A stretch of DNA of 62,491 nucleotides, the filler included. It is 4 parts of 4 records of this genome, joined end to end, with 100 filler letters (N's around TTAATTAATTAA, not from the genome) between each part and the next. Parts side by side here need not be neighbours in the genome. Positions count along the whole stretch, not along the records: positions 57,212 to 62,491 come from SRR31156797_12468; 3 more parts are not named here. The stretch is one strand, 5' to 3'. A program made the position numbers and the translations under genes. The notes under the pieces are model-generated. The model searched no databases. It was not told the DNA's origin and saw nothing but the letters and a program-made list of their open reading frames with translations. Of the stretch, positions 37,633 to 62,491 are shown one piece after another; the stretch's first letter is position 1; each line of letters begins with the position of its first letter.

Positions 37633-37634
37633 AT

Positions 37635-39089
37635 ATGATACTTGCAACTGAAAACGCTGAAAATAAAGAGCCCCAAAAGAAAAAAACGGGAAACCGGAAG
37701 GTCCAGGATAGAAAAGGCACTGTCTATACTCTGACCGGCAAGGTAGGAGAAGGGGGACAGGGAATGGTTTGCTCCACAGATCTTCCCGGGGTGCTGATAA
37801 AAATTCAGACAGAGAAAAATCCATCAAAAAGGAAAGAATGGGAACGGCATATCAAATGGCTGATGCGCCAGGACTTTACCGGCTTGAAGATCGCCCGGCC
37901 TTTGGAGGTCGTTGCCCGGCCCCCAAGTGTAAACGGTTATATCATGGAACTGATGGACGGGCTTGAATCTTTGGAAAAATCCCTGGAGAGATCTTTCATT
38001 CAATTGTCAGAGAATGAAGATGAACCCCTCCAAGGCTATCAAAGTACCGGCGGCTTAAAACGAAGGCTTATGCTTTTGGCTGAGCTGGCCCGGACACTGG
38101 CAGGACTCCATGCTAAGGGGCTTGCCTATGGTGATCTGTCACCGGCAAATATTTTTGTTTCCCAGTCTGTAGAACATCACCAGCTCTGGCTCATCGACTG
38201 CGATAATATCTGCATCAGTGAGCGGGCAGGTCATGGAGATGTACATACCCTCGGATATGCTGCTCCGGAGATCGCCCGGGGGGAATCCGGAGTAAATATG
38301 TCTACGGACTGCTGGAGTTTTGCTGTGATTGCAATGAAGTTTCTTTCCCATACTCATCCTTTTGAATCCGGTATTGCTGTGGAGGATGGGGACCCTGATG
38401 TTGAGATGAAACGGGCTTTGGAAGGGGAATTGCCCTGGATATATGATGAAGATGATGAGAGTAATGAATGGGCCGGCTCCGGGCTGCCCCTTGATATTTT
38501 GACCACAAAACAGATCCGGGGATTGTTTAATCAGTGTTTTGGGCCTGGAAAAGATGATTTGTCAGCCCGTCCGTCAATGGCTGCATGGGCCGATGCCCTG
38601 GATGCCGCATGTGCCTTGATTCATGGATGCTGTAATCCTGACTGTGGGATATCCTTTATCTTTAATTCAGATCAAACATGCCCGTTTTGCGAGACCGTAC
38701 AACCCAAGCAGAATAGTGTGTTGCTGAAGCATTATCTTATTAATGATACTGGCAGCCCTGATGAGCCCCGCTGGATTAAGACCAATGAGGTTCAAGTAAT
38801 CAATGCCGGGCAACGCGTAGATTTTCATATCGGTGCTGTGGGCACAGCGCTTTACCGTGAATCCCCGAAGATTTGCACCCTTGAGCTGGGTCAAGACGGT
38901 CTGATTATAAAACCCACAAAGCATGGGCTTCTCTCTCTTCAAAAGACTGGGGATAAAAAACTTCTTCAAATTAAAAGACAGCATACTTTGAAATCGGATA
39001 CCCGTTCGGGTAATGCCTTTGGCCTCCATTTGCGCATGGAGGATCATTCCGGTTTTCTTTCTCACCCTGTCTGGACATTCATCTGGTAG
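37635..39089 (+). CDS. Ser/Thr kinase with Zn ribbon (TerY-P triad)
   Basis: GEGGQG, YGDLSPANIF, LIDCDN, GYAAPE, DCWSFAV; C.NPDC...CPFC. Confidence 0.9.
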   Translation: MILATENAENKEPQKKKTGNRKVQDRKGTVYTLTGKVGEGGQGMVCSTDLPGVLIKIQTEKNPSKRKEWERHIKWLMRQDFTGLKIARPLEVVARPPSVNGYIMELMDGLESLEKSLERSFIQLSENEDEPLQGYQSTGGLKRRLMLLAELARTLAGLHAKGLAYGDLSPANIFVSQSVEHHQLWLIDCDNICISERAGHGDVHTLGYAAPEIARGESGVNMSTDCWSFAVIAMKFLSHTHPFESGIAVEDGDPDVEMKRALEGELPWIYDEDDESNEWAGSGLPLDILTTKQIRGLFNQCFGPGKDDLSARPSMAAWADALDAACALIHGCCNPDCGISFIFNSDQTCPFCETVQPKQNSVLLKHYLINDTGSPDEPRWIKTNEVQVINAGQRVDFHIGAVGTALYRESPKICTLELGQDGLIIKPTKHGLLSLQKTGDKKLLQIKRQHTLKSDTRSGNAFGLHLRMEDHSGFLSHPVWTFIW

Positions 39090-39097
39090 GGGGGCTT

Positions 39098-42000
39098 ATG
39101 AAACTTGGAAAATTTATTGGCTTGTCGAAACAGACTGTCCGTCTGAAAGATTTGGGTGGGGAGCCCATTGAAAAAGATGTCTGGAATATTGGGGAAGAGG
39201 TAACTCTCATAGAGGATTCCGGTAATTTTTACCTCCAACAGGGCGATGTGATTGCATCGGTCACACCTGCCGAAGCCAGCCAGAATTTGTCTTTAAAACT
39301 GGGCCGGGATCAGGCGCTCTGGTCGCTTACCTCGATTCGGAAAGATCAGTTTTTTGTCCGGAGTGTGGATATCTCGGATTCGCCCATCATAATTAACCTT
39401 GATATTGGCGTCAGTGATGCAATTGCACGGCAGCTTTACGGATCATCTCAAATAAAAGAGGACTCCATAGATGCCGCCCGGCGCTGGCTTGAAGACGAGT
39501 TTATCCTGGAAGGCAGTGAACAGCCCCGTGTTTTTGTTTCTTCATATGCCGGCAATAGAACAGATGCCCTCGAGATCCGCGGCCGTGAATGGGTCGCTTC
39601 ATTAAGTGAAATTGACCATTATTGGCAGATGAGTGGATTGACTCGGCGTCGGCACAGCAATGCCGGCCTGCAGGTCTTTCAGGGTGACATACGGTTTGTT
39701 GACGTCTCGGTGGCCGGCCAGTTGACCAATCCTGTTCATCGCCATGCCTTGGATGAAGCGATCCGCAGTCATGGTGGGTACATGGATCTGTGGGAAAAAT
39801 ACAGCAACATGGAGTGGGAATTCAGCTTGAATGACGCCCGACAGCTTGGAGCATTGAGATTTAAACTGGTTGAAAAGGGACGTAACTCTGACGAATGGGA
39901 GTTCTTGGTGGAACCTGCTGCCGGAAAAGATTTTTCCACAAAGCTGCATGAATTAAAGAAACAGGGATCCGGCAACGCCGGCAGCGGGTTACTGGAAGTC
40001 ATGCCATACATTCCGGATTGGTTGGATGGCAGTAAAAGCATTGAAGACACCGGATTGGGGGGGGATAAAGGTAAACCCTGGCTATGCGAATGGGTAAAGA
40101 TAGATAATGATATTGTCACCCTTCGAATAGATGCTCAGCGGTATAAAAATCCGTGTAAAAAAGGCATTATCTGCATGTCCATGCATGGGAACAGGAAGAT
40201 AAGGGAAAGGCGGCATCAGGCGATTACGAGTATTCGACAGCGCAGTAATCCCATGCCACAGCTTCATTATCTGCTTGAAGGGGTGGCGACACCATTTGAA
40301 GGGCCAAAAAAGCTTCGAAGATTAAGTGCCGCGGCTCGTAAAACCTTTAAAGGCGAACCGACCCCCAAACAGTTTCGAGCCATAAAAATTGCTTTTGAGA
40401 CCCCGGATGTGGCTATTATTATTGGCCCGCCAGGCACGGGCAAAACCCAGGTGATCACTGCATTACAAAAGGAACAGGCCCTGGCCATGAAAGGGGTGGA
40501 CATACAGCACCAGGTCCTTCTTTCAAGTTTCCAGCATGATGCCGTGGACAATGTTACAGCCAGGACCCGGGTGTTTGGGCTACCGGCCATAAAAATCGGG
40601 GGCAAAAATCGAAAAAATGGAGAACAGGACACCGATCCCATCGAAGATTGGTGCAAAGAAAAATCTGATATTCTGTCCGTCAGCCTGCAGGAAAAAATAG
40701 ACCGGGAACCGGTTTTCGGCGTACTCAAAGAATTAAAAAAAGAGATGACTACTCTGCGGGTGACCCGGCCGGATTATTCTGAGAAAAATGAACTTTTGTC
40801 CCGGATAAAAAAGTGCCTTGAAGAATTGTCTGCGTTTCAAATCCGCCTGTCTCCGGAGGTGGATCAATCCTGGAATGATTTTCTACTTGAACACCATAGT
40901 GATTCAGACCGCGAACAGGCCGGCCAGGGAGAAGAAAGGCTGGTTAAACGGGTTCTGGCCTTGAGAACAACACGGGTTGCCTTTCTGGATGACGGACCGG
41001 AACAATGTCTGCGTCTGCTTGATTGGGCTCAACGCGGGAACGCAATAATTGAATCTTCTGAATTGGACCTTTTGAATCATTGTTCCCGGGAATCGTCTGT
41101 AAGTGATACCCAGCTTAAAAAGCTTGGTAAACTTAAAGCAGCAATGCTGGACCGTTTGACCCCTGATTATCGGCCCCGGCATATCCGGACGGTTCTACCA
41201 AAGGAAGCCTGTGAGATGTTGGATTCTATTCAGGAGGAGATTGAACAGCAGATTAAAAGTTCCCGTAACCTTGGTTACTTGCTTGTGCTTGACGATTATC
41301 TTAAGACCTTAAATACGTCTCCTAACGCAATTAAAAGAGCCGCTTTGGAATACACCAGCGTTTTAGGTGCGACCTGTCAGCAGGCAGCTTCCCGTAGGAT
41401 AACTGATTTAAAGGATGTTGAGCATCAGAGCTCTATCAGTTTTGACACTGTGATTGTGGATGAGGCGGCCAGGGCCAATCCTTTGGACCTGATGGTGCCC
41501 ATGGCCATGGCAAAACGCCGTATTGTCCTGGTTGGGGATCATCGCCAGTTGCCCCATTTGCTGGAGCCTAAAGTGGAAGATGAACTGGCAGAAAAATTTG
41601 AATTTGAAACGACACAGCTGAAAATGCTCAAGATCAGCCTGTTTCAAAGGATGATGGAAATTTTAAAGGAGATGGAAGCAAAGCCGAATCAGCCAAAACG
41701 TGTGGTGATGCTGGATAAACAATTTCGTATGCATTCTGTTTTGGGACGGTTTGTCAGCAGATTGTTTTATGAGCCTTATGGACTTTCGGAAGTACAGCCG
41801 GGGTTTGATGATGATTCAAGATTTGCTCATAAGGTGCCTGGATATGAAGGAAAGGTCTGCGGCTGGATTGATATACCCGGAAGGGAAGGCAAGCATCACC
41901 GGAGAAACGGCAGTTTGGTTCGGGATGTTGAAGCTTTCCGGATTGCAAAAGAAGCTCGGACAATCATGGACGCCTGTCCAGATTTGAGTGTGGGTGTCAT

Positions 42001-42421
42001 TACTTTTTACCGGGCCCAGGTGGATAGCATAATGGAGGCGATGGTTAAAGAAGAGCTCACTGAAAAGGGGCCGGACGGGGGCGGAATACGGATTAAGCTC
42101 AATGGTGAGGATAATACCCGGGAGCGCCTTAGGGTCGGGACCGTTGATGCGTTTCAGGGAAAGGAGTTTGATGTGGTCCTGCTTTCCCTGGTCCGAACCA
42201 GTAATGGGCTTGTGGATGAAACAGATGATGACGCACTCACAAAGGCTTATGGCTTTCTACGGTTGGACAACCGGCTGAATGTCGCCATGAGCCGCCAGCA
42301 GCGCTTGCTGATTATGGTTGGGGATGCTGAAATGGCGACAGTAACGGGGGCCGAGGCGGCAGTACCTGCATTGCCTGCATTCTACCAGTTGTGCGGAGGA
42401 CAAGATGGAACAATACGCTAA
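39098..42421 (+). CDS. SF1 Upf1/DNA2-like helicase (CoCoNuT CnuH-like)
   Basis: GPPGTGKT, VDEAAR, VGDHRQLP, QFRMH, VITFYRAQ, TVDAFQGKE, RLNVAMSR. Confidence 0.88.
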   Translation: MKLGKFIGLSKQTVRLKDLGGEPIEKDVWNIGEEVTLIEDSGNFYLQQGDVIASVTPAEASQNLSLKLGRDQALWSLTSIRKDQFFVRSVDISDSPIIINLDIGVSDAIARQLYGSSQIKEDSIDAARRWLEDEFILEGSEQPRVFVSSYAGNRTDALEIRGREWVASLSEIDHYWQMSGLTRRRHSNAGLQVFQGDIRFVDVSVAGQLTNPVHRHALDEAIRSHGGYMDLWEKYSNMEWEFSLNDARQLGALRFKLVEKGRNSDEWEFLVEPAAGKDFSTKLHELKKQGSGNAGSGLLEVMPYIPDWLDGSKSIEDTGLGGDKGKPWLCEWVKIDNDIVTLRIDAQRYKNPCKKGIICMSMHGNRKIRERRHQAITSIRQRSNPMPQLHYLLEGVATPFEGPKKLRRLSAAARKTFKGEPTPKQFRAIKIAFETPDVAIIIGPPGTGKTQVITALQKEQALAMKGVDIQHQVLLSSFQHDAVDNVTARTRVFGLPAIKIGGKNRKNGEQDTDPIEDWCKEKSDILSVSLQEKIDREPVFGVLKELKKEMTTLRVTRPDYSEKNELLSRIKKCLEELSAFQIRLSPEVDQSWNDFLLEHHSDSDREQAGQGEERLVKRVLALRTTRVAFLDDGPEQCLRLLDWAQRGNAIIESSELDLLNHCSRESSVSDTQLKKLGKLKAAMLDRLTPDYRPRHIRTVLPKEACEMLDSIQEEIEQQIKSSRNLGYLLVLDDYLKTLNTSPNAIKRAALEYTSVLGATCQQAASRRITDLKDVEHQSSISFDTVIVDEAARANPLDLMVPMAMAKRRIVLVGDHRQLPHLLEPKVEDELAEKFEFETTQLKMLKISLFQRMMEILKEMEAKPNQPKRVVMLDKQFRMHSVLGRFVSRLFYEPYGLSEVQPGFDDDSRFAHKVPGYEGKVCGWIDIPGREGKHHRRNGSLVRDVEAFRIAKEARTIMDACPDLSVGVITFYRAQVDSIMEAMVKEELTEKGPDGGGIRIKLNGEDNTRERLRVGTVDAFQGKEFDVVLLSLVRTSNGLVDETDDDALTKAYGFLRLDNRLNVAMSRQQRLLIMVGDAEMATVTGAEAAVPALPAFYQLCGGQDGTIR

Positions 42422-43886
42422 TCGTTATCTTAATTTTTTAGAAGGTAGGAAGTCCCCATATAAAAGCCAGTCTTTTCTCTGGCCAGTCCGGATATGGCAG
42501 GTTTTGGCACCTGGTGTGGATAGTTCTGTGTTAAATATTTTCCAGCGGACTATTCTCGGGTTGATCCAGGCACACCAGACAGATCCAGCAGATATGGCAG
42601 AGTGGTTGGGGGTTGATAAAGAGTTGGTTCAATACATCCTTGCCACCCAACTGATGGCTAATGACTGGGTTGATTCCCGGGGACGTCTAACTCGTCAAGG
42701 TGTGGAGAGATTGGAGCAAGATGTAGAGGCGAGACAGGATCTAAAACCGGGATATGTATTTCAAGATGCATTCAGCGGTAATCTATGGCCCCGTGTCGTA
42801 GATTATCTGCCATATGTTGAACCGTCTTCGACTTCAGGAAACGGGCGACTTAGGTTTAGGCAACGCCGGGATAGTGATTGGGAGGAAGAACCGTTTATCA
42901 TCAAAGGTGGCGGTTTTGATTCGAGGCGACCGGAAATTAATGCGCTGAGGGAATCCATTCAGTTGGGTAATAATGCCATCCACAATCAAACGGTTAGTGA
43001 TGAACTATGGATGGGTGAGCTTCGTGAATATCAAATAGATGAAATCGAACTCATAGATCCGGAACCAATACCAGCATATGTCTTTTGCTGGGCAATCTCA
43101 GACCCCGATCATTCCTGGACAATTTCAGATCCTTGCGCCATTACCCGTTCCGCTGATTGGATGCGAAAAGATGTATATTCCCTGGCGCGGAAGAATACTG
43201 GATTTGCCGGTTACTTAAGCGCGTATCTGGGCGAACCTGATGATAAGGAAACCTGGGAAGAGATGAATGCCAGGCTGGAAGCTGAAGTTGAATTTGATGT
43301 GTATGCACATTATCCCTCTGCTAAGAATGTTCCGAATCTTACAGCCTATTTGGGGGCGCTGTTACGCCGTAAATATAAGTTGGAAGAGCTCGAAGAGGGC
43401 CGTGAAAATTTTGAGGATTGTGATGATATAGTGACCCAAGCTCAAAAGGTTTTGGAGTGTTGTTGTCAATGGATGCTTACGGAATGGCCCTGCAATCCAG
43501 CTCGAATTAATAAAAAATGGGGAAATGAGGACCTGTTTACAGCCTTTGATTTGATTTTTAGGGGCAGTCTTTCAGTGGATGAAGTCAAAGCGTTCTCCAA
43601 TAAAATAAGGGCGTGGGAGCTAAAGAACGCTGCAAGAGATAAGCAAAAAGCACGTCAATCCTTACGTGCTCTTTTTGCTACAGTTATTCTTTCCATAGAA
43701 GAGCATCCGGATCATCCGGTTCTTAATTGTCCTTCAAGTTCGTTTTTTGCAGGTATCGCACAGTTGGCTGACAACCGCAATCCAATCGCACATGCTTCCG
43801 GCAAGTTTACTAAAAAACAGAATGCGCTTTATTGGGCTGATTTTTCAATACAATGGGTTGAGTTATTAACAAGGAGTCTGAAGTAA
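42405..43886 (+). CDS. wHTH plus C-terminal HEPN putative RNase effector (CnuE-like)
   Basis: N-terminal HTH (DPADMAEWLGVDKELVQYIL); C-terminal RxxxxH motif DNRNPIAHA; overlaps the helicase gene. Confidence 0.68.
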   Translation: MEQYANRYLNFLEGRKSPYKSQSFLWPVRIWQVLAPGVDSSVLNIFQRTILGLIQAHQTDPADMAEWLGVDKELVQYILATQLMANDWVDSRGRLTRQGVERLEQDVEARQDLKPGYVFQDAFSGNLWPRVVDYLPYVEPSSTSGNGRLRFRQRRDSDWEEEPFIIKGGGFDSRRPEINALRESIQLGNNAIHNQTVSDELWMGELREYQIDEIELIDPEPIPAYVFCWAISDPDHSWTISDPCAITRSADWMRKDVYSLARKNTGFAGYLSAYLGEPDDKETWEEMNARLEAEVEFDVYAHYPSAKNVPNLTAYLGALLRRKYKLEELEEGRENFEDCDDIVTQAQKVLECCCQWMLTEWPCNPARINKKWGNEDLFTAFDLIFRGSLSVDEVKAFSNKIRAWELKNAARDKQKARQSLRALFATVILSIEEHPDHPVLNCPSSSFFAGIAQLADNRNPIAHASGKFTKKQNALYWADFSIQWVELLTRSLK

Positions 43887-43888
43887 AA

Positions 43889-46456
43889 ATGGGAAAAAAT
43901 AAAAAAAACAAACAGAAAGTAAAAACAAAGAAAGAGTCGGTTAGCCTGCCTAAGAATGAATCTTTAAAAGAGAAAATTACCAAGGCCATGGGCGCGGGCA
44001 ATTTTTTGACTCCTGATTCTAATTTTAAGCCCGGTAGTATTGATATCAGCTCACTTCAAAAGGATGAAAGCCGGCTACCGAAAGCCGAAAAGTTATTGGA
44101 TGAAATTATTCAATTGCATGATGACCTGAAATTGAAGTCCGACGAGCTTGATAAGTCAAAGGAAGGCATAGAGGCCTTGAATAAGACCCTTAGCCAGGAG
44201 AAAGAAGAGCTTTCTATTCAGAAGAAGAAAATAGGAGAGATCAAAATTGAGTTGGCTGAGAAAAAGGAACAATTAGCTCAGACGGAATCACATCTTATAG
44301 AATGGGAGGATGACCTGGGTGAGCGGGAAGCCGAAGCAAAGGCCGGATTCTTGTCGGAAAAACAGAAGGCCTGTTTTGAAAAGAGAAATGCCCTGGATTC
44401 TCTTGATAAAGAACATAAAGAAAGGGCTGAAAAAAGATGGGCTGAAATTTTTGAAAGAGAAAAGCAGCTTGATGACCGGGATATGGAATTAGCCAGCCGG
44501 GAAGCCAGCGCCAATGCAGGGTTCATTGATGAAAAGAAAAAAGTTTTAGGAGAGTTCCAAAATCAGCTTGATGATAAGCACGAAGAATTAAAAGAACTCA
44601 GGCTGGCAATGGACACTGAAAAAGCCAAGCATGATGAGAAACTTGCCAAAGATAAGGGACTGCTCCTCCAAGAGATAAATAAGATTCGAGATGAGCATCA
44701 GGAAAAATTGGACAAGGAGAGGGCGTTGGTGGAAACCGAACGGTGCAGGCTTGAGGTTCGGCAAAAAGAGCTTGAACGGCACACACACCGCCTTGAAGTT
44801 CGAAAAAGTTCCCAGAGTGATTGGGAGCAAAGTGTAAAGGATGATCTCGAAGCAGAATTCAATTCTCAAATTATCAGCCTTGAAACTCAGCTGGAGCAGC
44901 TGAAAAACTATCGCAATAAAGACCTGGAGGATATTAAGGAACTTAATCAGGAATTGATCCAGTACGCCGATTTGAAAAAATCTCTGGACGGAGCCGGAAT
45001 AGAAGATGTTCAGGTTAAACTTGAGGAAGACCGCAAAGAGATAAAAAAATTAAAGGCTGAGCTTGCTGCCGCTCCCCGGGATGATTTGGAAGAAGAAAAC
45101 GACAGGCTTCTGGAGCAGATAGATGATCTGTCCGAGGAAAAGATTGAGCTTAAAACTGAGCTTTGGGAAGCAAAAAGCGAATTGGATAAAAACAGGTTAA
45201 GTGTGATGGCCAAACATAACCTGGTGAAAGAGAAAAAAGTGCTGGAACTCCATAATAAGACATTAGATTCAGCAATTGAAAATCTTCAAACGCAGGTGGA
45301 GGATCTTGTTGAAAAGCAGCAGAGCAGCAACGCATTTCCGGCATTGTGCAAGCTTGATAAAGATCATAGTCGAGATGGTGTGAATCTCCAGGTTGTTCCG
45401 AACCTCAAAGCGTTCGCCGAACAGATGCGAATGGGAATGGCCTGTATTTATCCCGAAACGCCGCTTTATTACCGCAGTGAAGATGTGCGCTTGTTCCTTG
45501 GCGGCTTGGCTATGAGCAATCTTCATATCCTTCATGGTATGTCTGGTACAGGTAAAACGAGCCTTGCCAAAGCGTTTACAAAGGTCGTGGGCGGAGAGTG
45601 TACTGACATTGCCGTTCAGGCCGGATGGCGGGATAAGGATGATCTTCTTGGCCATTTTAATGCGTTCGAGAAAAAATTCTATGAACGGGAGGCGCTTCAG
45701 GCTATTTACAAAGCACAACTGCCAGAGTTCAAAAACCGAATAAATGTGGTTTTATTGGACGAAATGAACCTTTCCCGGCCTGAGCAATACTTTGCGGAGT
45801 TTCTGTCTGCCATGGAAAAACAGCCCGATCAACGTGAGATTGTTCTGCTTGAAAGTGAACTTCAAAATGCGCCGAGGTTATTCAAGGACGGGCGTAAAAT
45901 AAAAATTCCTGAGAATGTATGGTTCATCGGGACAGCGAATCATGATGAAACAACCAATGAATTTGCAGATAAAACCTATGACCGTGCCCATGTAATGGAG
46001 CTGGGCCGTAGTGACGAAAAAATTGGCACGGATGATTATGAGCAGACAACATATCGTTTCTCATCCCTGAAAGACTTATTCAGGTCGGCCAGCCTAAAGC
46101 ATTGTAAAAAGGTTGGGTCAATTTTCAAAGAGTTTGAAGAAAGTATTTTGGCGGAGGTTCTGGAAGGAAATTTCACTGTTCGTTGGGGGAACAGGCTCCG
46201 GGAGCATGCAAAAAGATTTATCCCGGTTGTTATAGAAGCCGGAGGTTCTTTTGAGGAAGGGCTGGACCACTTGCTGGCATCAAAGGTGTTTAGAGATGGA
46301 AAGGTTACCGGACGGTTTGATACCGTTTTAAAAGATCTTGATGACGTCGAGGAGGCATTGCTCGAAACATGGGGGGGGATTGGATTAAAAAATGATCCAG
46401 CCAAAGCTTTGGCCTGTATAAAGCAAGACAAAAGGAGGATGGAGCGTGGCGCATGA
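43889..46456 (+). CDS. McrB-like AAA+ GTPase with about 400-aa N-terminal coiled coil (CnuB-like)
   Basis: GMSGTGKT, LLDEMNLSRPEQYFAEFLS, McrB-type GTANHDE; long K/E/L heptad region. Confidence 0.85.
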   Translation: MGKNKKNKQKVKTKKESVSLPKNESLKEKITKAMGAGNFLTPDSNFKPGSIDISSLQKDESRLPKAEKLLDEIIQLHDDLKLKSDELDKSKEGIEALNKTLSQEKEELSIQKKKIGEIKIELAEKKEQLAQTESHLIEWEDDLGEREAEAKAGFLSEKQKACFEKRNALDSLDKEHKERAEKRWAEIFEREKQLDDRDMELASREASANAGFIDEKKKVLGEFQNQLDDKHEELKELRLAMDTEKAKHDEKLAKDKGLLLQEINKIRDEHQEKLDKERALVETERCRLEVRQKELERHTHRLEVRKSSQSDWEQSVKDDLEAEFNSQIISLETQLEQLKNYRNKDLEDIKELNQELIQYADLKKSLDGAGIEDVQVKLEEDRKEIKKLKAELAAAPRDDLEEENDRLLEQIDDLSEEKIELKTELWEAKSELDKNRLSVMAKHNLVKEKKVLELHNKTLDSAIENLQTQVEDLVEKQQSSNAFPALCKLDKDHSRDGVNLQVVPNLKAFAEQMRMGMACIYPETPLYYRSEDVRLFLGGLAMSNLHILHGMSGTGKTSLAKAFTKVVGGECTDIAVQAGWRDKDDLLGHFNAFEKKFYEREALQAIYKAQLPEFKNRINVVLLDEMNLSRPEQYFAEFLSAMEKQPDQREIVLLESELQNAPRLFKDGRKIKIPENVWFIGTANHDETTNEFADKTYDRAHVMELGRSDEKIGTDDYEQTTYRFSSLKDLFRSASLKHCKKVGSIFKEFEESILAEVLEGNFTVRWGNRLREHAKRFIPVVIEAGGSFEEGLDHLLASKVFRDGKVTGRFDTVLKDLDDVEEALLETWGGIGLKNDPAKALACIKQDKRRMERGA

Positions 46457-48342
46457 TTTTGTATGATCGATTGACAGATACCAGGATTCCAGTTGATGAT
46501 TTACAGGATCATGTATTGCCCGAAAGATACCAATTGACCTGCGGGGCATTAATTAATGGGCATACCCATGCATCTGCCGGTGATGTCCTGGTGACCGATG
46601 GCACCTATAAACTATCATTTAATGGCCACAACCTTCCTTGCTGTGAAACGGTTGCGGGCAAGGAGGAACTGCCAGAATTTGAAATTGTTGTGAAAGCGCT
46701 TTTTCAAATAAATAAGGCTTTAATTGAAATTGATAAGGAGGGGGACGGTCAATTACCCTCTCCGCTTGTTCCCAGCCAGGTGTTTGATGATGATGGTGAT
46801 TTAAATCAACTGGAGGTCCTCCTTGGTAAGGTGCTGGCGAAGGGGCACCTTCATGAAATAAATCGCCGACCCCGTATTGATATGCGTTATGATGACATGG
46901 TGTTGCCTGTCAGTCGAGCTAAGCGTCTGGCTCCTTCTGCGCACCGGCATCTTGCTGCTCAATCCGAATGCTGGCAGAGAAGGACCTTGACCGGAATTCA
47001 GCCGAAAAAAATTATGGGCCAGATTAGTGAGGATGAATATGCACTCTATGAAAATAAGGTGTATGCACGGCTGTTGGATCGGCTTGATCGCCTATTAAAT
47101 AAAAGGTTGCAGGAGTTGAACGAGCTGCTTAGCAATTTGGATGATGTTCTCGAATTGGAGAGCGCAGACACTTTGAATTATCGATTTAGAAACAGTCTTT
47201 TTGGGTTGTGGGGAGAAACATTTACCTCCATGGAAGCCGTTTCTCTCACTCGGGATAAAATTGAAACAGTTCAAACCCGCCTTAAAGAATATTCAAAATC
47301 CATAAGGGGGTTAATCCAGAGCGATTTGTATAATCGGGTGCCTCGGAATGCCCAGATTGCAACCAAAATTCAGCTGACAAACATTCTTGCCCATGACCAG
47401 CATTACCGATTTATAGTCAAATTATGGAATTCGTCCCTTGAGGCCAATGATAAGAATTCATTACCGGAGGAAAAGTATAAAAAAAATGCGGCATTACAAC
47501 AGGCCTACATTAATTATTGCAAGTTATTGATCGTAAGATCTTTAGGCGAACTGGGGTATGATTCAAAACGCAAAGGGATAAATGGCTGTAAGTTCACATC
47601 TATGGGGCATGAATTAATTGTCACCTTAAAAAATACTAACTGGGAGATAGAGAATAAAAGAACTGGCCAGAAATTGGTTCTTGTCCCAATTGCCTCCTGG
47701 AATTCAACAGGGTTAGAAACAATACAAGAGGGGAATAAACTTATCATTCCGTGTTGTTTAAATAGCCAGGGTGACCCATTCGTGTCCCCGTCCGATTGGA
47801 TAGCCGGGAAATATACTGGCCCGCTTGTTCTTTCTCCCATGGATTTTTATGTCCAAGAGCGATTGGTTGTTATTCTTAAAAGTTGGATCCTGCTCAAGCC
47901 GTTTAGTGAATATGGTAAATTGATCACAAAAATACCAGGAGCGGTCATGCCTCAATTCAAGAAGCTAAAAGAGTGCAATGTGGAGGGAGAGTATTCAGTA
48001 CGCTTGCTGCAGCCAATATCTAAAAATGCATATGAACTTATATTGAATGATCTGAAGGCGGCTAATGCCAATATAAGCCATGAGCAGTTTGAAACAGCCA
48101 TGGCGTTTATGGATCAAATTTCAAGATGTCCTTTTTGTCAAGAAAAGGCAAGTTTGACACCATGGCAAGGTCGGCAGGCATTTAAAGCCATTTGCCCCCG
48201 CAGTGATTGTCAGCTTGAGTGGGGTATTTATTATGGCGACAGCGAGAAACCTGACGTGAGCTTTTCTACAAAGGATCAGAAGAAGGGCAGGTTCAAGACC
48301 AATGGCCGTTGGTTTGATCAATATGAGCTGATACGATCTTAG
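46453..48342 (+). CDS. McrC/DUF2357-like protein with C-terminal Zn finger (CnuCD-like)
   Basis: ATGA overlap with the McrB-like gene; LPVSRAKR and YENKVYARLL; C-terminal CPFC...CPRSDC. Confidence 0.7.
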   Translation: MILYDRLTDTRIPVDDLQDHVLPERYQLTCGALINGHTHASAGDVLVTDGTYKLSFNGHNLPCCETVAGKEELPEFEIVVKALFQINKALIEIDKEGDGQLPSPLVPSQVFDDDGDLNQLEVLLGKVLAKGHLHEINRRPRIDMRYDDMVLPVSRAKRLAPSAHRHLAAQSECWQRRTLTGIQPKKIMGQISEDEYALYENKVYARLLDRLDRLLNKRLQELNELLSNLDDVLELESADTLNYRFRNSLFGLWGETFTSMEAVSLTRDKIETVQTRLKEYSKSIRGLIQSDLYNRVPRNAQIATKIQLTNILAHDQHYRFIVKLWNSSLEANDKNSLPEEKYKKNAALQQAYINYCKLLIVRSLGELGYDSKRKGINGCKFTSMGHELIVTLKNTNWEIENKRTGQKLVLVPIASWNSTGLETIQEGNKLIIPCCLNSQGDPFVSPSDWIAGKYTGPLVLSPMDFYVQERLVVILKSWILLKPFSEYGKLITKIPGAVMPQFKKLKECNVEGEYSVRLLQPISKNAYELILNDLKAANANISHEQFETAMAFMDQISRCPFCQEKASLTPWQGRQAFKAICPRSDCQLEWGIYYGDSEKPDVSFSTKDQKKGRFKTNGRWFDQYELIRS

Positions 48343-48611: not shown

Positions 48612-48711
48612 NNNNNNNNNNNNNNNNNNNNNNNNNNNNNNNNNNNNNNNNNNNNTTAATTAATTAANNNNNNNNNNNNNNNNNNNNNNNNNNNNNNNNN
48701 NNNNNNNNNNN
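48612..48711. other. Artificial contig linker
   Basis: N run with TTAATTAATTAA, 100 nt. Confidence 0.97.
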
Positions 48712-55253: not shown

Positions 55254-55704
55254 TTTAATTTGTTTTAGAAAGCAAAATTATAAAAATACTTACGCCCAAT
55301 GCAAATACCTTCAATTCATTTTCGATTGGCTGAGTAAAGCTAAAGTAATTTGAATCTAAATTAAGAATCATCTTCTTATTAAAGTATTTTAATTGATATT
55401 TTTAATGTGCAGTATATCAGTGATTAAGGAGTGTGTTTTTGATTTTTTTGATTATTAGATGAACTTTTTAGCGAAACCTTTTAAGAATACTTTCGTTAAT
55501 GTTGACAAATGATTAGAAAAATATTACAAAAGGATGTTTTTTAATGATGAATGAATAGTGAAGGTGCCCGCGAGGTTGAAATAAGTTTTGGTTTTGGGGA
55601 AAATCAAAAAAATTAAAATTCAACAATCGTACTCTTTTAAATTACATAAAGATTTAATATTTTCGACGACACAACAACACAACACAACAACACAACTTAT
55701 TGAC

Positions 55705-57018
55705 ATGCTAAAATTTACTTTTTTATCGCTAATAGTGTGGGGACTAGCGATTCAGGTTACTTCAGCCCAAGGTGGCACATCTTGTGAAAACGCATTAGTT
55801 TCAGATCAAGGTTTTAACATTGCAAACAACTCAGAAGGAGATCAGTGGTATACTTATGTACCAGATCGCGACGGTAAAGTATTGGTTTCAACATGCGGAC
55901 AAACTGACGCAGATACTTATGTAGAAGTTTTTGACGGATGTGGTTACGAACCTATCGCAGTTAGTAATGATTATTGCGGAAAACAAGCAGAATTAACGTT
56001 TCAGGTTAAAGGAGGCGAAACCTACTGGATTTGTTGGAGAAGTTATTATACAAGTCAGGATTACGAATGGTTTATGAATGAATCAACTTCAAAAGCTGGT
56101 GAGTTTTGTAGTAACCCAATAACCGTATCTGAAGGAGCGAATGTAGGTACAATTCCAACTAAATTTTACAGATGGTACGAGTTTACAGCAACTCGTAATG
56201 GTAAAATTACTGTAGAAGCCATGAGTGAAGTAGTAGGCGACTGTAAAGTAGCTATATTTAACGATTGTTCTTATACTGGAAGTTTAAATACTGATGATAA
56301 CTGGAATCCATCAAAAACAGCCTTTGAAGGTGTAGCAGGAAATTCATACTTAATTGCTATTTATAATGAAGGTAGCAACGAAACAGTAAATTGGTCAGTT
56401 ACTGAAGGTGACTGGGAAGCTGGCGAGCGATGCGAAAATGCAATAAGCATCAGTAGTATTGAAGGAATGGCGATAGATCATACTTCAGGAACAGATAAGT
56501 GGTATGCTTACCTTGCACTTCAGGATGGCGATATTACTATATCTTCTGTAGGCGTAACAAGCGAAGATACTTACCTTGAGGTTTACGAAGGGTGTAATTC
56601 AGAGAAGGTTGCATTTAGTGATGACGCTAACGGTTTACAATCAGAGATAGTAATCAATGCTACAGCAGGTAATATTTACTATATTAAGTGGGATGATATT
56701 TTCCAACCACAACAATATGCAATGAGCCTTAAAGCTGGAAATCTAGCAACAGACGTATCGCAACTTGAAGAAAACAGTACAGTAGGTATTTATCCAAATC
56801 CATCAGTTGATGGACAGGTACAAGTTGATCTTACAAGTTTTGAATCGGACTTGGTAACTGTTAGTGTGGTGAGTTTAACCGGAGCTACAGTTCAGGTTGC
56901 TAAATTAGCTGGAGGACAAGTAGTACCACATGATTTATCTCAACTATCTCCAGGTATCTATAATATTGTATTGGAAGATGTACAAACAAGAAAAGTTGTT
57001 AAGTTTTTGAAGAAATAA
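55705..57018 (+). CDS. T9SS type-A CTD secreted protein with three Cys-rich repeats
   Basis: Signal peptide from ATG 55705; three repeats of G..C.N....WY....DG/NG.I; C-terminal IYPNP...LSPGIYNI...KFLKK. Confidence 0.82.
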   Translation: MLKFTFLSLIVWGLAIQVTSAQGGTSCENALVSDQGFNIANNSEGDQWYTYVPDRDGKVLVSTCGQTDADTYVEVFDGCGYEPIAVSNDYCGKQAELTFQVKGGETYWICWRSYYTSQDYEWFMNESTSKAGEFCSNPITVSEGANVGTIPTKFYRWYEFTATRNGKITVEAMSEVVGDCKVAIFNDCSYTGSLNTDDNWNPSKTAFEGVAGNSYLIAIYNEGSNETVNWSVTEGDWEAGERCENAISISSIEGMAIDHTSGTDKWYAYLALQDGDITISSVGVTSEDTYLEVYEGCNSEKVAFSDDANGLQSEIVINATAGNIYYIKWDDIFQPQQYAMSLKAGNLATDVSQLEENSTVGIYPNPSVDGQVQVDLTSFESDLVTVSVVSLTGATVQVAKLAGGQVVPHDLSQLSPGIYNIVLEDVQTRKVVKFLKK

Positions 57019-57042
57019 ACATATAACCGCACATTTTGAAGG

Positions 57043-57079
57043 ATGCACTCCGGAATTAATATTCCAGGGGTGCATTTTT
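57043..57079 (+). terminator. Intrinsic terminator
   Basis: ATGCACTCCGGAAT...ATTCCAGGGGTGCAT followed by TTTT. Confidence 0.65.
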
Positions 57080-57111
57080 CGTTTAACCCGCATTATGTAT
57101 TAGAACTTCGT

Positions 57112-57211
57112 NNNNNNNNNNNNNNNNNNNNNNNNNNNNNNNNNNNNNNNNNNNNTTAATTAATTAANNNNNNNNNNNNNNNNNNNNNNNNNNNNNNNNN
57201 NNNNNNNNNNN
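57112..57211. other. Artificial contig linker
   Basis: N run with TTAATTAATTAA, 100 nt. Confidence 0.97.
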
Positions 57212-57595
57212 AAGGGGAAGGCGAAGTTTGTGGTGAGGTAGGGTTGGTTGAATGAAGAAAATCCAGATATGTTGTCTCCCATTGATCGATGAAATTGAGA
57301 ATGTGAAGTTGATGGTCAGCTAGTAGGGTAAACATGTTAAAGTACTCATCATAGAGCACAATACATATGGGTATGAAAGAGGCTAAATTGCAAATAAAAA
57401 TCGGTTTCTTTAACGGGGTAAAATGAAGCCACGTTTGTTAGTTTGATACAATTCAGGAAATCACTTTTTATCAGTTGCTTTTAAAGCTATACTATTGATT
57501 AAACAGACTATATCTCAACATTAAGGCAAATGAATTTTAAATATTTAAAACATGAATAATATTTTTACCCAAGCTAAACTTCAAAAACAAAATTT

Positions 57596-58969
57596 ATGAA
57601 AACACATATAATTATTTTGACGGTTCTTTTTTTTATGATATTTTCTTACGGATTTCCACAATCCACTTTTAGAAAAACTATTGATATTGGTGAAAATGAT
57701 CGTGGCACGTGCATAAGCCAAACAACTGATGGAGGATACATAGTGGCAGGAAGCACCTATACAAGCCCTGACAATTCGGACATCGTGTTGGTGAAAACAG
57801 ATGCCTTTGGAGATACAGTCTGGACCAAAGTATATGGTGGTGAATATGCCGAAGAAATTCACTGTATAAGAGAGACTTTAGACAATGGATTTATTATAGC
57901 AGCCACGTCAAATAGTTTTGGCGGGATAAACGGAAAAGCCTGGATAATCAAAACCGATGCTGACGGAGATACGGTTTGGTCCAAGGTGATCGATGGGAGA
58001 ATAAACCATATTTTGCAGTCTGACGATGCATCATATTTCCTGGTTGGTCGTGATACCACTTATTCGAAAGCGTCAATGATAAAGCTGAACCCATCTGGAG
58101 AGCTGCTTTGGTCGAAGAGTTATGGTTTTAGTAAATGGTTTTATAAGGCAATCCCAGTTTCAGATGATAAAATTCTGATTGGCGGACTGTCGCGCTCATC
58201 TCAAACACCTCACCCTACTACTATTGATCTCTTTATGACGAATCATAGTGGTGATTCGCTTTGGTTTTCACAATATGGCGGCACCCACATTTATAGCTAT
58301 TTGTCATTGCTAAATACCTTCGATGGTGGCTATCTGATTTGTTCGAATCAGACAATATTTCAGGAATATAGTGATATGTACCTTCACAAAGTAGATTCGT
58401 CCGGTAATACAGATTGGGTGAAAATATTTGAAAATGAGAATACATGGGAATATGCCCACTCTGTGGTTCAAATTAATGATTCAGGTTATGTGATTACCGG
58501 GGATACACAAGAACTGGGATTGGCATTGATTAAAACAAATCCTGATGGAGACATTGAATGGGAGATAAGCTACGATACTGATTCACTCCGTACCTCAGGA
58601 TATTGCCTGCGAAACACAACTGATAGTCATTTAGTGGTTAGTGGAGAGGCTTTGAATATTTACACCGGAAAATCGGATATTATACTATTGAAGACAGATC
58701 AGGAGGGTATGATAACCAAGATCTCTGAAGTAAAAAAAGAAAAGGAAATAACAATTTTCCCCAACCCAAATCGGGGCGACTTTCATATTCAACTGCTCGA
58801 GGGTGATCAGGAGGTCATGATTTATGACTTGAGTGGCAGGCTGATTTTTGACCAAAGGATTAGCCGTAATGCAACAATTCTAAAGATTGACGGGCTAAAA
58901 TCAGGAAGTTACGTCATCCACATTAAATCTGAACAATATTACAGAACAGCCAGGGTACTGGTATTATGA
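57596..58969 (+). CDS. T9SS type-A CTD secreted beta-propeller-like protein
   Basis: Signal peptide, repeated QT.DGGYI / K.D..GD..W.K blades, IFPNP...LKSGSYVI CTD. Confidence 0.85.
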   Translation: MKTHIIILTVLFFMIFSYGFPQSTFRKTIDIGENDRGTCISQTTDGGYIVAGSTYTSPDNSDIVLVKTDAFGDTVWTKVYGGEYAEEIHCIRETLDNGFIIAATSNSFGGINGKAWIIKTDADGDTVWSKVIDGRINHILQSDDASYFLVGRDTTYSKASMIKLNPSGELLWSKSYGFSKWFYKAIPVSDDKILIGGLSRSSQTPHPTTIDLFMTNHSGDSLWFSQYGGTHIYSYLSLLNTFDGGYLICSNQTIFQEYSDMYLHKVDSSGNTDWVKIFENENTWEYAHSVVQINDSGYVITGDTQELGLALIKTNPDGDIEWEISYDTDSLRTSGYCLRNTTDSHLVVSGEALNIYTGKSDIILLKTDQEGMITKISEVKKEKEITIFPNPNRGDFHIQLLEGDQEVMIYDLSGRLIFDQRISRNATILKIDGLKSGSYVIHIKSEQYYRTARVLVL

Positions 58970-59471
58970 AGCTGGACAGCCATAAAGAAATTGAAAAATC
59001 CAAATGCTAAATACGAGCAGGACAACTCAAGTAGCATCTTTGTTACCATAAACTGGTAATTACCTTCGAATACCTTCTAAATTTCATCTTCAACGCAGTA
59101 GGAGCTTCATACGGGTGAAAACTGCTATTGCTAAAGCGCAATACAAATCATCAGTTCTTGTTGCGCATTGACTATTCCATTCAATGCCTTATTTATACTC
59201 TCTATAAATTGATCTTCCAACAAGCTGATAATCTACACGTAATACTAATATCGAATAATTAAATGTTAAAATTTGATGACAAAGTCACTTTGAGTGGATC
59301 ATCATATACAGAATGGCCAGGTGAAAGGGAATGCAGAAACTGACCGACGTTTAAAAACAGGCAAAAAGGAAATACACGGTGTTAAGAAAAATTGAAAATA
59401 CAATTCCGGACCCAAAGCAACGCATTGCATGGCTCATAACCATTGTAACCGTTTTTGGGACAATTGCTCTA

Positions 59472-60680
59472 GTGTCATGTCAAGTTTGAATTGACGGATA
59501 TAATCGTTTTAGTTTTATTCTTGAGTCCTTTGTTGTAAACTGCCAGTTGATCACAGCATGTTTGTTATTCCTGTGTTTTTGCCAAGCTTTTACTTGTTTG
59601 GCAACCTCATCAATATTATCAATCCGCCTGCTTAAGCACTGACTATTCAATACCTGTAACTCAATTTCTGCCATATTTAGCCAGCTTCCGTGTTTTGGTG
59701 TATAGACAAAATCAAACCTATCCCATATTCTTTTCGCTTCTTTTGGCGAAAACTTTTCATACAAGGCTCCTGGTTTATGTGTGTTCAGGTTGTCCATCAC
59801 CAATGTGATCTTTTTTGCAATTGGATAATACTCATCTGCTATTTCTTTTATCAATTCCGCCCAATCAAGTTTTGTCTTTCTTTCCGTTATTTTAACATAC
59901 CTCTTTCCTGCAAGTGGTTCGTTTACCATAAAGATATTGCAGGTTCCTTTTCGGACATATTCATAATCAACCCTGCGTTCTTTACCTATTCCCACTGGTG
60001 TACCGATCCTCGTTTCTCCTATTAATTGTTTTGGCGATTCATCCATACAGACAACCGGATTTTTATCATCATATGGTCGCTTGTATACATCTAAAACGTT
60101 TTCCATGTTAGCAACAAATTCGCTGTCAGAGTTTGGCGGAATCACCCATCCTTTAACTTTCCAGGGTTTGATTTCGTTTTTTTAAAACGGTACGTACCGT
60201 TTCATGGGATATTGAGCCAACTACTTCAAGCTCTACCAACTTATCTGCTAATAGCCGTAACGACCAACTGGAAAAGCCTTCAGGCGGCTCGCTACAACTC
60301 AAAGCAATCAAACGAGCTTCAAAATCACCATCAGCCTTCCTTTCATACTGTCGGGTGGTTGGCTTTCTTTCCAACACAGCATCGAACCCATCTTCAACAA
60401 ATCGTTTCTTTACCCTGTCTATCGTTCTCATACCAATCTTTAAAACGTTGCATATTTCAGCATTGGTTACTTTGTCAGAAAACTCACCCTGGTCACAATT
60501 TAAAAGAACGTATGCAGCCCTAAATTTCTGAGATGTGTGCTTTCCTTTAGCTACAATACTCATCAATACATCTCGCTCATCTTTAGATAATGTTACTTTA
60601 TACCTTGCCATGATTATTATTTTTGAATTACCATGGCAAAGATAATCAATATTTACGTCATATTATAATTGACATGACAC
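59472..60680 (-). mobile_element. Complete IS630-family insertion sequence
   Basis: Terminal IR GTGTCATGTCAA / TTGACATGACAC with an aligned internal TGACG; TA duplicated at 59470-71 and 60681-82 within a CTAG target. Confidence 0.92.
59480..60611 (-). CDS. IS630 transposase, OrfA/OrfB joined by -1 frameshift
   Basis: OrfA HTH (WSLRLLA); slippery TTA AAA AAA C at 60176-60185 giving LKKNEIKPW; DDE residues in VCMDE, VMDNLNTH and WLNMAEIE. Confidence 0.9.
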
Positions 60681-61369
60681 TAGGGATCACCGGAATTTGG
60701 GTGGCATTGGGAAGCGACAATAAAACCGAAAACCTGCAATACATCTTTGGTGCCCTGTTGCCCTTGTGGGGAACATGGATCGGCACCATCCTGGCATATT
60801 ATTTTTCAAAGGAAAACTTTGAATCTGCAAGTAGAAACACCAAAGAAGTTCTGGACAAGGTGATTACCTCCTCACAGAAGCTAAAATCGGTGCGGGTAAC
60901 CGAGGTAATGATACCTTTTAACAGTATGGTTGTGCATAATCTGGGCGATAAACCGATGGACGAAACCATGCTTAAAACGCTTCGTGATACTATGAAAACT
61001 GAAAACCGGTTGCGCTTGCCGATCATCAATATGCACCGGCATGTTAAGGCGGTTGTGCACAAAAGTACGTTGGACCACTACTTTGCGGATATCTTGTGTA
61101 ATAAAGACAATTCAAACCCACGTGATCCTGATCTTGGCCAGGCCAGAAAGCACGATGAATATCTGAACATGGTGCTTGCCTACGGACGAGGTTACATTAG
61201 TGTTGGTGCCACTCTACTGGATGCACAGCGACTCATGGAAAAAACGCCGGTATGTAACGACATTTTCATCACCGAAACAGGCAAACCCAATGAGCCAGTG
61301 ATGGGATGGATAACAAATATGATTATTGCTGAGAAAGCACAACTCGAATAATTAATATCCTTGGACTTC

Positions 61370-62422
61370 ATGAATAAAAAAATTACATATCTGCTTGGAG
61401 CAGGGGCAAGCTACCCGGAATTACCACTTGCTGTTGACATTCCGGATAAAGATATTTTAGGGCTTCCAGGTTCTTTAGGGCAAATGACCGCATGTTTTGA
61501 TTCGGCTCTTAGAGATCGGAAATTTAACAATGTAACCGGCAAAATTCTAAAAGAACTGATTGCTGATTTTCGGAAACTGAGTGAAGAATCCAGGAAATTT
61601 CATAATGTGGATACTCTGGCTAAATACTATTACCATAGCGACAAGAAAAAACTCGTATGGCTTAAACAAACCCTGGCCAGGTATTTTATGCTGGAACAGT
61701 TCGGGATAGATCTTATGTCAGGAAAAGCTGACAGAAAAACGGTATTCAGGCTAAACAAGCGCTACCTGGTCTTTCTCACCACCATTCTACAAAAAAGAGG
61801 CGCCCTTCCGGAAAATATCAGGATGCTTACTTGGAATTATGATTTCCAGATGGAACTGGCCGGGTATGTTTTTCAAAAAGAATCATTGCAGTGGAATGGG
61901 GTAGTTGAGATTCAGGATCAACCACTATTTGGGTATCATCCGGGATCTGCACTCAATTCGCGACAGGACGCCGGCGAAATAAGTCTGGTTCACCTTAATG
62001 GTGTTGCAGGTATGATTTCCAATAGTGACAACGAATACCTGAATATCTTTTTGGCAAAGGATGAATATGAAAAGGAGGAAGAAATCGTGAAACAGGTTTA
62101 TATTTTCACAAAGCAAGCTGACCTGTTATTGAATTTTGCATGGGAAGAAAGCGAATTTGCCGGCAAAACACTGGAAATAGCCAAAAGCATCATCGAAGGT
62201 ACGGACATCCTGGTGGTGATCGGGTACTCATTTCCGTTTTTCAACCGAAACATCGATAAGGCCTTATTCGAAACCTTGCGAAAAAGGGAAAGGCTGAAAA
62301 TCTATTTCCAGGACCCTGTGTTGGACGGGAGCAGTCTTCGAAACCAGTTCAACCTCGACGACACCGTAACCATCAAACACATCCCGGATGTAAACCAGTT
62401 TTACATCCCTTACGAGTTGTAA
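61370..62422 (+). CDS. SIR2-like (SIR2_2) putative NADase
   Basis: YLLGAGAS, LTWNYD, VHLNG, LVVIGYSF. ATG 61370 is 18 nt after the 2TM-CBS stop. Confidence 0.8.
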   Translation: MNKKITYLLGAGASYPELPLAVDIPDKDILGLPGSLGQMTACFDSALRDRKFNNVTGKILKELIADFRKLSEESRKFHNVDTLAKYYYHSDKKKLVWLKQTLARYFMLEQFGIDLMSGKADRKTVFRLNKRYLVFLTTILQKRGALPENIRMLTWNYDFQMELAGYVFQKESLQWNGVVEIQDQPLFGYHPGSALNSRQDAGEISLVHLNGVAGMISNSDNEYLNIFLAKDEYEKEEEIVKQVYIFTKQADLLLNFAWEESEFAGKTLEIAKSIIEGTDILVVIGYSFPFFNRNIDKALFETLRKRERLKIYFQDPVLDGSSLRNQFNLDDTVTIKHIPDVNQFYIPYEL

Positions 62423-62491
62423 AACAGGTGATTGATGCAAGTGAAAAAATGATATTCAAATAAATTTAAATGAAGGATAACTAAATATTAT

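Follow-up and report, generated by a model that had tools for sequence, protein, structure and literature searches.

The window analysed here, a stretch of 62,491 nucleotides, carries close to its right end a two-gene locus (59379–62422) composed of a gene for a membrane protein with two transmembrane (TM) helices and a C-terminal CBS pair, called TM-CBS below, and of a gene for a SIR2-fold protein, called SIR2-like, directly downstream on the same strand. The TM-CBS gene is split by an insertion sequence (IS) of the IS630 family and the SIR2-like gene is intact. Among relatives of TM-CBS, genes encoding TIR or SIR2_2 domains of other families are found as close neighbours, and this link at the level of the domain class is real. 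We tentatively favour, with a confidence somewhat below even, the reading that the two genes form a Thoeris-like pair in which a ligand derived from nicotinamide adenine dinucleotide (NAD) would gate the two-helix CBS protein as a membrane effector, here knocked out.

An IS630-family element interrupts the TM-CBS gene

The TM-CBS gene is present on the (+) strand as two fragments. The 5′ fragment (59379–59471), 31 codons from a putative GTG start, aligns in translation with the N-termini of four intact homologues (P0001–P0004) and contains most of hydrophobic helix 1. The 3′ fragment (60683–61351), 222 codons plus a stop, is supported by 106 homologues, by conserved columns and by a model of P0001, and encodes the end of helix 1, a conserved helix 2 (LLPLWGTWIGTILAYYFSKENFE) and the CBS pair. 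The frame that opens at GTG 59379 resumes at 60683 and ends at the TAA codon 61349–61351, and excision of the IS in silico yields 253 codons with zero internal stops. The intact homologues (245–254 aa, 50–77% identical) span the junction residue for residue, the window reading KQRIAWLITIVTVFGTIAL to its left and GITGIW to its right where P0001 reads KQRIAVLITIVTVSGTVILGGLGIW. Because these homologues cross the junction, and because contigs of two other sequencing runs (X2 and X3) show the empty site, the rejoined reading is confirmed.

The element itself (59472–60680, (−) strand) is 1209 bp long and was identified from its inverted repeats, its DDE_3 and helix-turn-helix (HTH) parts and the empty site. 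Its terminal inverted repeats (59469–59502 and 60650–60683) measure 34 nt and are 79% complementary, and a TA duplicated on both flanks (59470–71 and 60681–82) can be read from the sequence; together with a DDE_3-type transposase bearing an N-terminal HTH, these features place it in the IS630 family. The transposase is encoded by two open reading frames (ORFs) on the (−) strand, orfA for the HTH part (60153–60611, 152 aa; HTH_32, E = 6.2e-15; HTH_29, E = 2.2e-9) and orfB for the catalytic DDE_3 part (59480–60145, 221 aa; E = 5.2e-28). The split lies at TTTTAAAAAAAC, where the frames join at an A7 run (plus-strand T run 60177–60183); the frame of orfB reads as +1 relative to orfA, and removing one A from the run would fuse the two ORFs. 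The copy resembles IS630/Tc1-mariner insertion sequences in its DDE_3 and N-terminal HTH domains, TA duplication, terminal inverted repeats and length of ~1.2 kb, but its transposase frame is broken at the A7 run, so that it is either slippage-dependent or defective. It is single-copy, blastn against the window returning the element itself only.

The insertion point is a TA at codons 31/32 of the TM-CBS gene; the insertion is found in this strain only and leaves the SIR2-like gene intact. In X2 and X3, public runs of a different study from run X1 (the likely source of this DNA) with contigs 95–99% alike, the contigs join 59468 to 60680 and skip 1211 nt, i.e. the element plus one TA, and in X1 the interrupted allele is the sole form. 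Another contig of X1 (record 2) carries the IS ends (window 59468–59486 and 60669–60689) ~650 nt apart, possibly as a short derivative, like a miniature inverted-repeat transposable element, in another replicon or organism (depth 41 versus 353). The earlier note on this DNA, made from its letters alone, had proposed that an IS630 element interrupts a membrane gene and had dismissed the TTG at 60623, given as a start by the ORF track, as an artefact. Both proposals are borne out, the first by the inverted repeats, the TA duplication, the DDE_3/HTH ORFs and the allele without the IS in X2 and X3, and the second by the position of this TTG within the right end of the IS.

Two membrane helices and a CBS pair in the rejoined protein

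As a stand-in for the broken protein of the window, we modelled P0001, which is 77% identical to it, with a 58-sequence alignment. The model (predicted local distance difference test score, pLDDT, of 90.2) has helices at residues 2–33 and 37–83 followed by a CBS pair, the tandem CBS motifs forming a Bateman fold, and its best Foldseek matches are CBS-pair structures, with MJ0922 (2p9m) at E = 2e-8 and a target TM-score of 0.75. CBS pairs bind adenosine-containing ligands. The Pfam CBS gathering score is not reached by the window fragment (13.4 bits, cut-off 24), and 18 of 58 TM-CBS relatives match Pfam CBS at E ≤ 0.01. By hydropathy, helix 1 is clearly supported and helix 2 falls slightly below the threshold of 1.5 (~1.46, summed by hand). 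The most conserved stretch of the family, made of invariant and near-invariant columns, is the LLPLWGTWIGTILAYYFSKENFE segment of helix 2, which argues that this helix is more than an anchor. The description given by the earlier note, a protein of ~253 aa from GTG 59379 once the IS is excised, with two TM helices and a CBS-like C-terminus, agrees with the 253 codons, the length of the homologues, the empty site and the CBS-pair fold of the model, with the hydropathy of helix 2 just below threshold.

The CBS pair of CorC is also among the best fold matches (7cfh, E = 1.7e-7). In CorC/CNNM and MgtE, CBS pairs bind ATP or Mg and gate the transporter. TM-CBS differs from these proteins in its membrane part, which consists of two helices with their own conserved motif; the DUF21 and MgtE domains are absent from it, three weak MgtE matches being found among 58 members.

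TIR and SIR2_2 genes of several families adjoin TM-CBS

We examined the best 80 of ~260 TM-CBS loci in the one-genome-per-species GTDB, with 6 kb of flank each. Pfam scans took in 182 proteins flanking the TM-CBS genes, and a PADLOC scan 127 of 140 (13 from L074–L080 omitted). TIR or SIR2_2 genes of other families are at most two genes away from TM-CBS in 12 of the 80 loci, which is a lower bound since 39 of the +2 neighbours and no −2 neighbours were scanned. In eight of these twelve loci, the partner gene immediately follows TM-CBS in the same orientation, with gaps of 20–197 nt. It encodes TIR in L010 and L055, TIR followed by a TPR-S protein in L014, TIR with SLOG in L042, a CAP12-type TIR in L050, SIR2_2 in L037 and L058, and SIR2_2 with TIR_2, followed by nSTAND1, in L001. 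A 1013-aa TIR protein is encoded directly upstream of TM-CBS, and overlapping it, in L044; a SIR2_2 gene is convergent and 13 nt away in L040; and a TIR gene lies two genes away in L008 and L017. TIR partners thus occur in nine loci, and sensor-type genes (nSTAND1 or TPR-S) are additionally present in L001, L008 and L014. With local TIR and SIR2_2 hidden Markov models (HMMs) built from the partner proteins, 14 of 80 TM-CBS loci are positive as compared to 1 of 101 control loci (Fisher p = 5e-5, the loci not being independent). PADLOC matched 9 of the 127 flanking proteins at E ≤ 1e-10.

The partners are concentrated around the window's own branch. In a tree of 85 rows, obtained by a quick IQ-TREE search, the window copy and P0001–P0004 fall in a 17-row subclade (SH-aLRT 92), in which 8 of the 12 rows of known context have a TIR/SIR2_2 partner versus 4 of 68 elsewhere. 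When the SIR2_2 and TIR_2 partner of L001 was searched in turn in 401 Bacteroidota genomes, six loci in five genomes were found, and in the best of them (L193) TM-CBS is encoded directly upstream of the partner.

Other neighbours of TM-CBS are FRG-domain proteins in L032, L065 and L077, two of which are the PADLOC candidate PDC-S15, and a nucleoside 2-deoxyribosyltransferase-like protein in L013.

The downstream gene encodes a SIR2-fold protein

The SIR2-like gene (61370–62422, (+) strand, 350 aa), supported by 946 homologues, a model and motifs, most likely starts at ATG 61370, whereas the ORF track starts it at TTG 61361; the homology of X2, X3 and the RNA run X6 to the window resumes exactly at 61370. 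The spacer between the TM-CBS stop and this ATG is 18 nt, as the earlier note had it, and the gene ends 69 nt before the end of the window. None of 120 listed homologues carries a Pfam domain. The model (pLDDT 90.4) has a Rossmann-type SIR2 fold, and its top structural matches are SIR2 subunits of SIR2-HerA systems and PsSIR2. Foldseek matched 8sub_D at E = 7.8e-8, and VIA scored 8yhx_H at Z = 15.7 (root-mean-square deviation 3.7, 249 aligned residues, spanning residues 3–351), 8w9l_A at 15.3, a third defence SIR2 at 15.2, ThsA at 12.6 and the sirtuin deacylases Sirt5, CobB and Sir2Af at 13–14.

Across 55 sequences of the family, the motifs GAGAS (G13-A14-G15-A16-S17), WNYD (W158, N159 and D161) and GYS are invariant, and the His of HLNG (H211) is found in at least 90%. 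The motif set of the SIR2 superfamily is therefore present, with a GAGxS loop, an Asn in xNYD and an HG-type His whose NAD-binding and catalytic roles we take to be those known from sirtuins and ThsA. With hhalign, WNYD aligned onto the TNYD of the SIR2_2 partners in L058 and L037, the alignment with the L058 partner also covering HLNG onto KLHG; the partner of L001 gave nothing. With this fold and these conserved motifs, the enzyme looks active. Because the Pfam SIR2/SIR2_2 cut-offs are not reached (no match for the window protein; 1 of 55 members matches SIR2_2, at E = 0.053), membership of the superfamily rests on fold and motifs. The PADLOC SIR2 models reached only E = 2e-4 and 1.7e-3 with the window protein, NCBIfam gave nothing, and a PDB profile search returned only noise at E > 1.

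The family's neighbourhoods were surveyed in 101 loci (9 from genomes, 80 from metagenomes and 12 from viral contigs). Its distribution is sporadic (10 of 401 Bacteroidota genomes, besides the 12 viral-contig loci) and no partner recurs beside it, the biggest cluster of neighbours covering 6 of the 101 loci. At E ≤ 1e-10, PADLOC recognised 32 of 136 flanking proteins; restriction enzymes of type I, IIG or III account for 17 of these and are spread over 16 loci. The one omitted among 137 neighbours (L109:2-370) is a piece of the SIR2-like gene itself. RhuM, integrases, IS genes, an AbiH gene and a DndB/TIR/AAA_13 island are found as well.

Distant members (28–33% identical) lie within restriction operons (L119–L121, L138, L151 and L162; L159, L165, L171, L174, L176 and L178), some of them directly 3′ of a type IIG enzyme gene (gap ≤ 18 nt) and 5′ of a RhuM/PDC-S05 gene, others 5 nt ahead of a type III res gene. 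The AbiH-family gene (L093:9074-10132) stands directly 3′ of a SIR2-like member; its protein was considered as a relative of the SIR2-like protein and rejected (hhalign probability 0.6%).

The two genes at strain level

The block 59186–62491 is common to the window and X2. Since the X1/X2 homology begins at 59186 and the left flanks differ, both genes travel as a block at strain level. Within this block, 900 letters of unknown content replace window positions 61336–61369 in X2, and in X3 and the RNA run X6 as judged from loose ends. The replacement of 34 nt by the 900-nt block alters the last five codons of TM-CBS. The block is probably the derived state, judging from the sequence, because the C-terminus of the window protein, AEKAQLE, agrees with P0001–P0004 and the X2 form diverges from it at 61335; two lineages would then carry different insertions in a 3-kb locus. 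The 30-letter ends of the block have no other occurrence in the window with up to three mismatches allowed. A contig of the RNA library X6 crosses the 900-nt junction into the SIR2-like gene; the X6 contigs cover 61370–61666 and 62065–62399 of this gene and none covers TM-CBS, coverage that cannot show expression or its absence.

Pair or independent neighbours

A number of results weigh against a pairing of these two families. The HMM of the window's SIR2-like family detects no member in the 80 TM-CBS loci, the TM-CBS HMM detects none in the 101 SIR2-like loci, and none of five Bacteroidota genomes with TM-CBS carries a SIR2-like relative anywhere. The SIR2-like family has no recurrent membrane partner (a hydrophobic segment occurs in 7 of 74 close neighbours on the same strand, and these seven are mutually unrelated), and taken by itself it looks like a stand-alone NADase candidate of the defence-island type. 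To our knowledge, SIR2 enzymes are NAD-depleting effectors and not makers of a signal. As for TM-CBS, 66 of its 80 loci show no TIR or SIR2 gene, its Roseibium, Actinomycetota and Bacteroidales branches have ordinary or different contexts, PADLOC holds no model matching it, and no fusion to another domain was found among longer proteins (weak evidence). Finally, in X2, X3 and X6, the closest relatives, the 900-nt block stands between TM-CBS and SIR2-like. Contigs of equal length among the homologues of the two genes (1301, 2148 and 2535) stem from different sources or could not contain both genes, and are no evidence that any contig carries the two together.

From the HMM result on the 80 loci and from blast clustering of TM-CBS neighbours, in which the largest cluster covers 8 of 80 loci, all of them Roseibium synteny, the pair was at first put down to chance. 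Pfam scans of the neighbours overturned this reading; the HMM and the clustering had misled because they are blind to other TIR and SIR2 families. The earlier note had proposed an undescribed defence pair and had named beforehand rare co-occurrence of the homologues as what would refute it. At the family level, the homologues indeed do not co-occur and this part of the proposal falls, whereas at the level of the domain class it stands, on the TIR/SIR2_2 enrichment described above. The defence-island context to which that note had also looked is not seen at the locus, whose immediate surroundings, with GH20, radical SAM and type IX secretion system cargo genes upstream, are no defence island.

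The main rival to the Thoeris-like pair is independence of the two genes: the SIR2-like gene would be a self-sufficient single-gene defence of the NADase type, TM-CBS would work alone or with another partner, and the two would be adjacent because accessory genes cluster in a variable patch. We consider this possible but doubtful. That the families never co-occur (0/80, 0/101 and 0/5), that the SIR2-like family is sporadic and without a common neighbour, that it often stands beside restriction enzymes (32 of 136 flanking proteins matched by PADLOC, versus 9 of 127 for TM-CBS), integrases, IS genes or AbiH, and that 900 nt lie between both genes in relatives are all consistent with independence. 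On the other hand, a same-strand SIR2-fold gene 18 nt downstream is the layout of the other NADase families, found in 8 of 12 cases in the window's branch, and the 900-nt block looks derived from the match of AEKAQLE to P0001–P0004 and the departure of X2 at 61335. Moreover, the partner families are promiscuous: that of L001 adjoins TM-CBS in only one of its six loci, and since it is thus mostly found without TM-CBS, the absence of TM-CBS from the 101 SIR2-like loci carries less force.

Two further alternatives concern one gene each. TM-CBS may have a common membrane function outside immunity, for instance in regulating cell-wall turnover or as a channel gated by nucleotides, its TIR/SIR2 neighbours then being lineage-specific accidents. 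This is made improbable by the excess of TIR/SIR2_2 genes (14 of 80 loci, versus 1 of 101 control loci), which belong to different TIR and SIR2 families and mostly keep the same order and strand, as well as by the nSTAND1, TPR-S and FRG neighbours and by the scattered, not universal, occurrence of TM-CBS among species. It would nevertheless fit a family spread across many phyla (~260 loci) with no neighbour common to all of it, many housekeeping contexts (acetyl-CoA synthetase, methylenetetrahydrofolate reductase, glutamate synthase synteny), few PADLOC matches among its flanking proteins (9 of 127) and near-absence from viral contigs (one partial match at E = 2e-4). That the SIR2-fold protein is a deacylase or ADP-ribosyltransferase of metabolism or regulation, and not an immune NADase, seems to us very improbable. 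Sirt5, CobB and Sir2Af do score nearly as high as the defence proteins (Z of 13–14 against 15–15.7), but the top matches are SIR2 subunits of SIR2-HerA systems, and a helical insert at residues 35–113 appears to take the place of the sirtuin zinc module, going by the secondary structure of the model and the known structure of sirtuins. The sporadic distribution and the frequent restriction-enzyme neighbours point the same way, and Atlas look-alike clusters carry SIR2_2, a defence-type family.

Likeness to known systems

The type II Thoeris effector (ThsA, renamed ThsC) has N-terminal TM helices and a Macro domain, with the TIR protein ThsB as partner (bioRxiv 10.64898/2026.01.22.701046), and the Macro domain binds His-ADPR (ADPR, ADP-ribose), as two preprints state (bioRxiv 10.64898/2026.01.22.701046; bioRxiv 10.64898/2025.12.03.692087). 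TM-CBS resembles this effector in joining two N-terminal membrane helices to a cytoplasmic domain for adenine-nucleotide derivatives, which for the CBS pair is a prediction. The gene of an NAD-processing enzyme also adjoins, a TIR gene in nine TM-CBS loci. It differs in having a CBS pair and not a Macro domain, and the partner in the window has a SIR2 fold and not a TIR domain. No TIR gene, and so no ThsB gene of the Thoeris type, is found within 55588–62422 of the window, whose sequence ends at 62491.

The expanded Thoeris set comprises 29 putative effector types, 11 of them validated and several of them membrane proteins (bioRxiv 10.64898/2025.12.03.692087). In the arrangement described there, TIR genes are combined with exchangeable effectors, among them SLATT, DUF2270 and an ion channel, which is like TM-CBS with its various partners. 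CBS is unmentioned in the text and legends of this preprint, whose Figure 1C and Table S1 may list a 2TM-CBS effector. Literature searches turned up no publication that connects CBS domains to defence by Thoeris, TIR or SIR2, and the word CBS is absent from the eLife 2021 paper on nSTAND1.

The SIR2 subunit of SIR2-HerA (Nezha) and PsSIR2 are the best structural matches of the SIR2-like model, but their identity to it is only 12–16%, with no match at the sequence level. HerA is not encoded upstream in the window, and no PADLOC match named HerA occurs among the 136 SIR2-like flanking proteins.

Peptidoglycan hydrolases beside TM-CBS and a possible mechanism

In 8 of the 80 loci, TM-CBS adjoins a peptidoglycan hydrolase without a hydrophobic N-terminus. 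Five Bacteroidales loci have a GH46-like protein of 224 aa encoded directly downstream of TM-CBS, and the further cases are GH25 in L001, VanY in L014 and Amidase_2 in L071; PG_binding_1 in L003 and SLT in L051 are weak or look like housekeeping. The Bacteroidales cassette, TM-CBS followed by the GH46-like gene without signal peptide, is found in L029, L030, L038, L047 and L049 (also L021 and L039), and in several of these loci a 107-aa helical protein is encoded ahead of TM-CBS. By analogy, the small membrane protein beside a hydrolase resembles the layout of phage holin–endolysin cassettes, which suggests that the two-helix part may open the membrane. The TM-CBS loci differ from such cassettes in being without prophage context, and the window has no such hydrolase. 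We know of no holin with a CBS domain.

If the Thoeris-like pair holds, gene 1 would provide a protein of 253 aa whose two membrane helices at the N-terminus are followed by a CBS pair in the cytoplasm, and gene 2 an apparently active, NAD-cleaving enzyme of SIR2 fold. Upon infection, the partner with the NADase fold (SIR2 in the window, TIR in most relatives) would make an ADP-ribose-type product or drain NAD, the CBS pair would sense the ligand or the change in NAD or adenylate, and the two-helix part would oligomerise and breach or open the membrane in a holin-like manner. In some relatives, the opened membrane may pass a peptidoglycan hydrolase without signal peptide to the wall. The cell would stop growing or die ahead of completion of the phage cycle. 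The logic would be that of type II Thoeris with CBS replacing Macro, and by this analogy the gating of a CBS-controlled membrane effector by a SIR2 product, as the earlier note had imagined it, is plausible.

The membrane component has been knocked out recently. Loss of the membrane gene to the IS with the enzyme left intact fits the loss of a costly effector, as a single observation. The intact SIR2-like gene beside the knocked-out TM-CBS gene also shows that the enzyme does not need TM-CBS as an antitoxin to hold it in check.

A wider proposal, unlikely when taken as a whole, is that 2TM-CBS proteins are unrecognised ligand-gated, holin-like suicide effectors that read NAD-derived signals. 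With TIR partners they would form a further Thoeris-like type; SIR2 would supply the signal in the window and in L037, L040 and L058, the first such case; and in some lineages the gate would release hydrolases without signal peptide.

Wider surroundings in the window

About 11 kb from the TM-CBS locus, the co-directional genes of 36133–48342 encode a von Willebrand factor A protein, a PP2C phosphatase, a Ser/Thr kinase, an 1107-aa superfamily 1 helicase (AAA_11/AAA_12), a 493-aa unknown, an 855-aa AAA protein and a 629-aa unknown, and look like a conflict-system cluster. Three pairs of masked 44-nt N runs (21559–21658, 48612–48711 and 57112–57211) account for 264 N in total.

Implications

The locus offers a natural knock-out together with a natural intact allele, and among its relatives nine TM-CBS/NADase pairs with an operon-like layout are available from named genomes. 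With 946 matches and an Atlas cluster of 3940 members, the SIR2-like family is large, and it is without a Pfam model and often lies inside restriction–modification operons. If the pairing is real, two membrane helices joined to a CBS pair would be a new effector architecture in NAD-signal immunity, in which the reading of an immune nucleotide by a CBS domain could be put to the test. A further question would then be whether SIR2 enzymes can work ahead of an effector and not only as the killing step.

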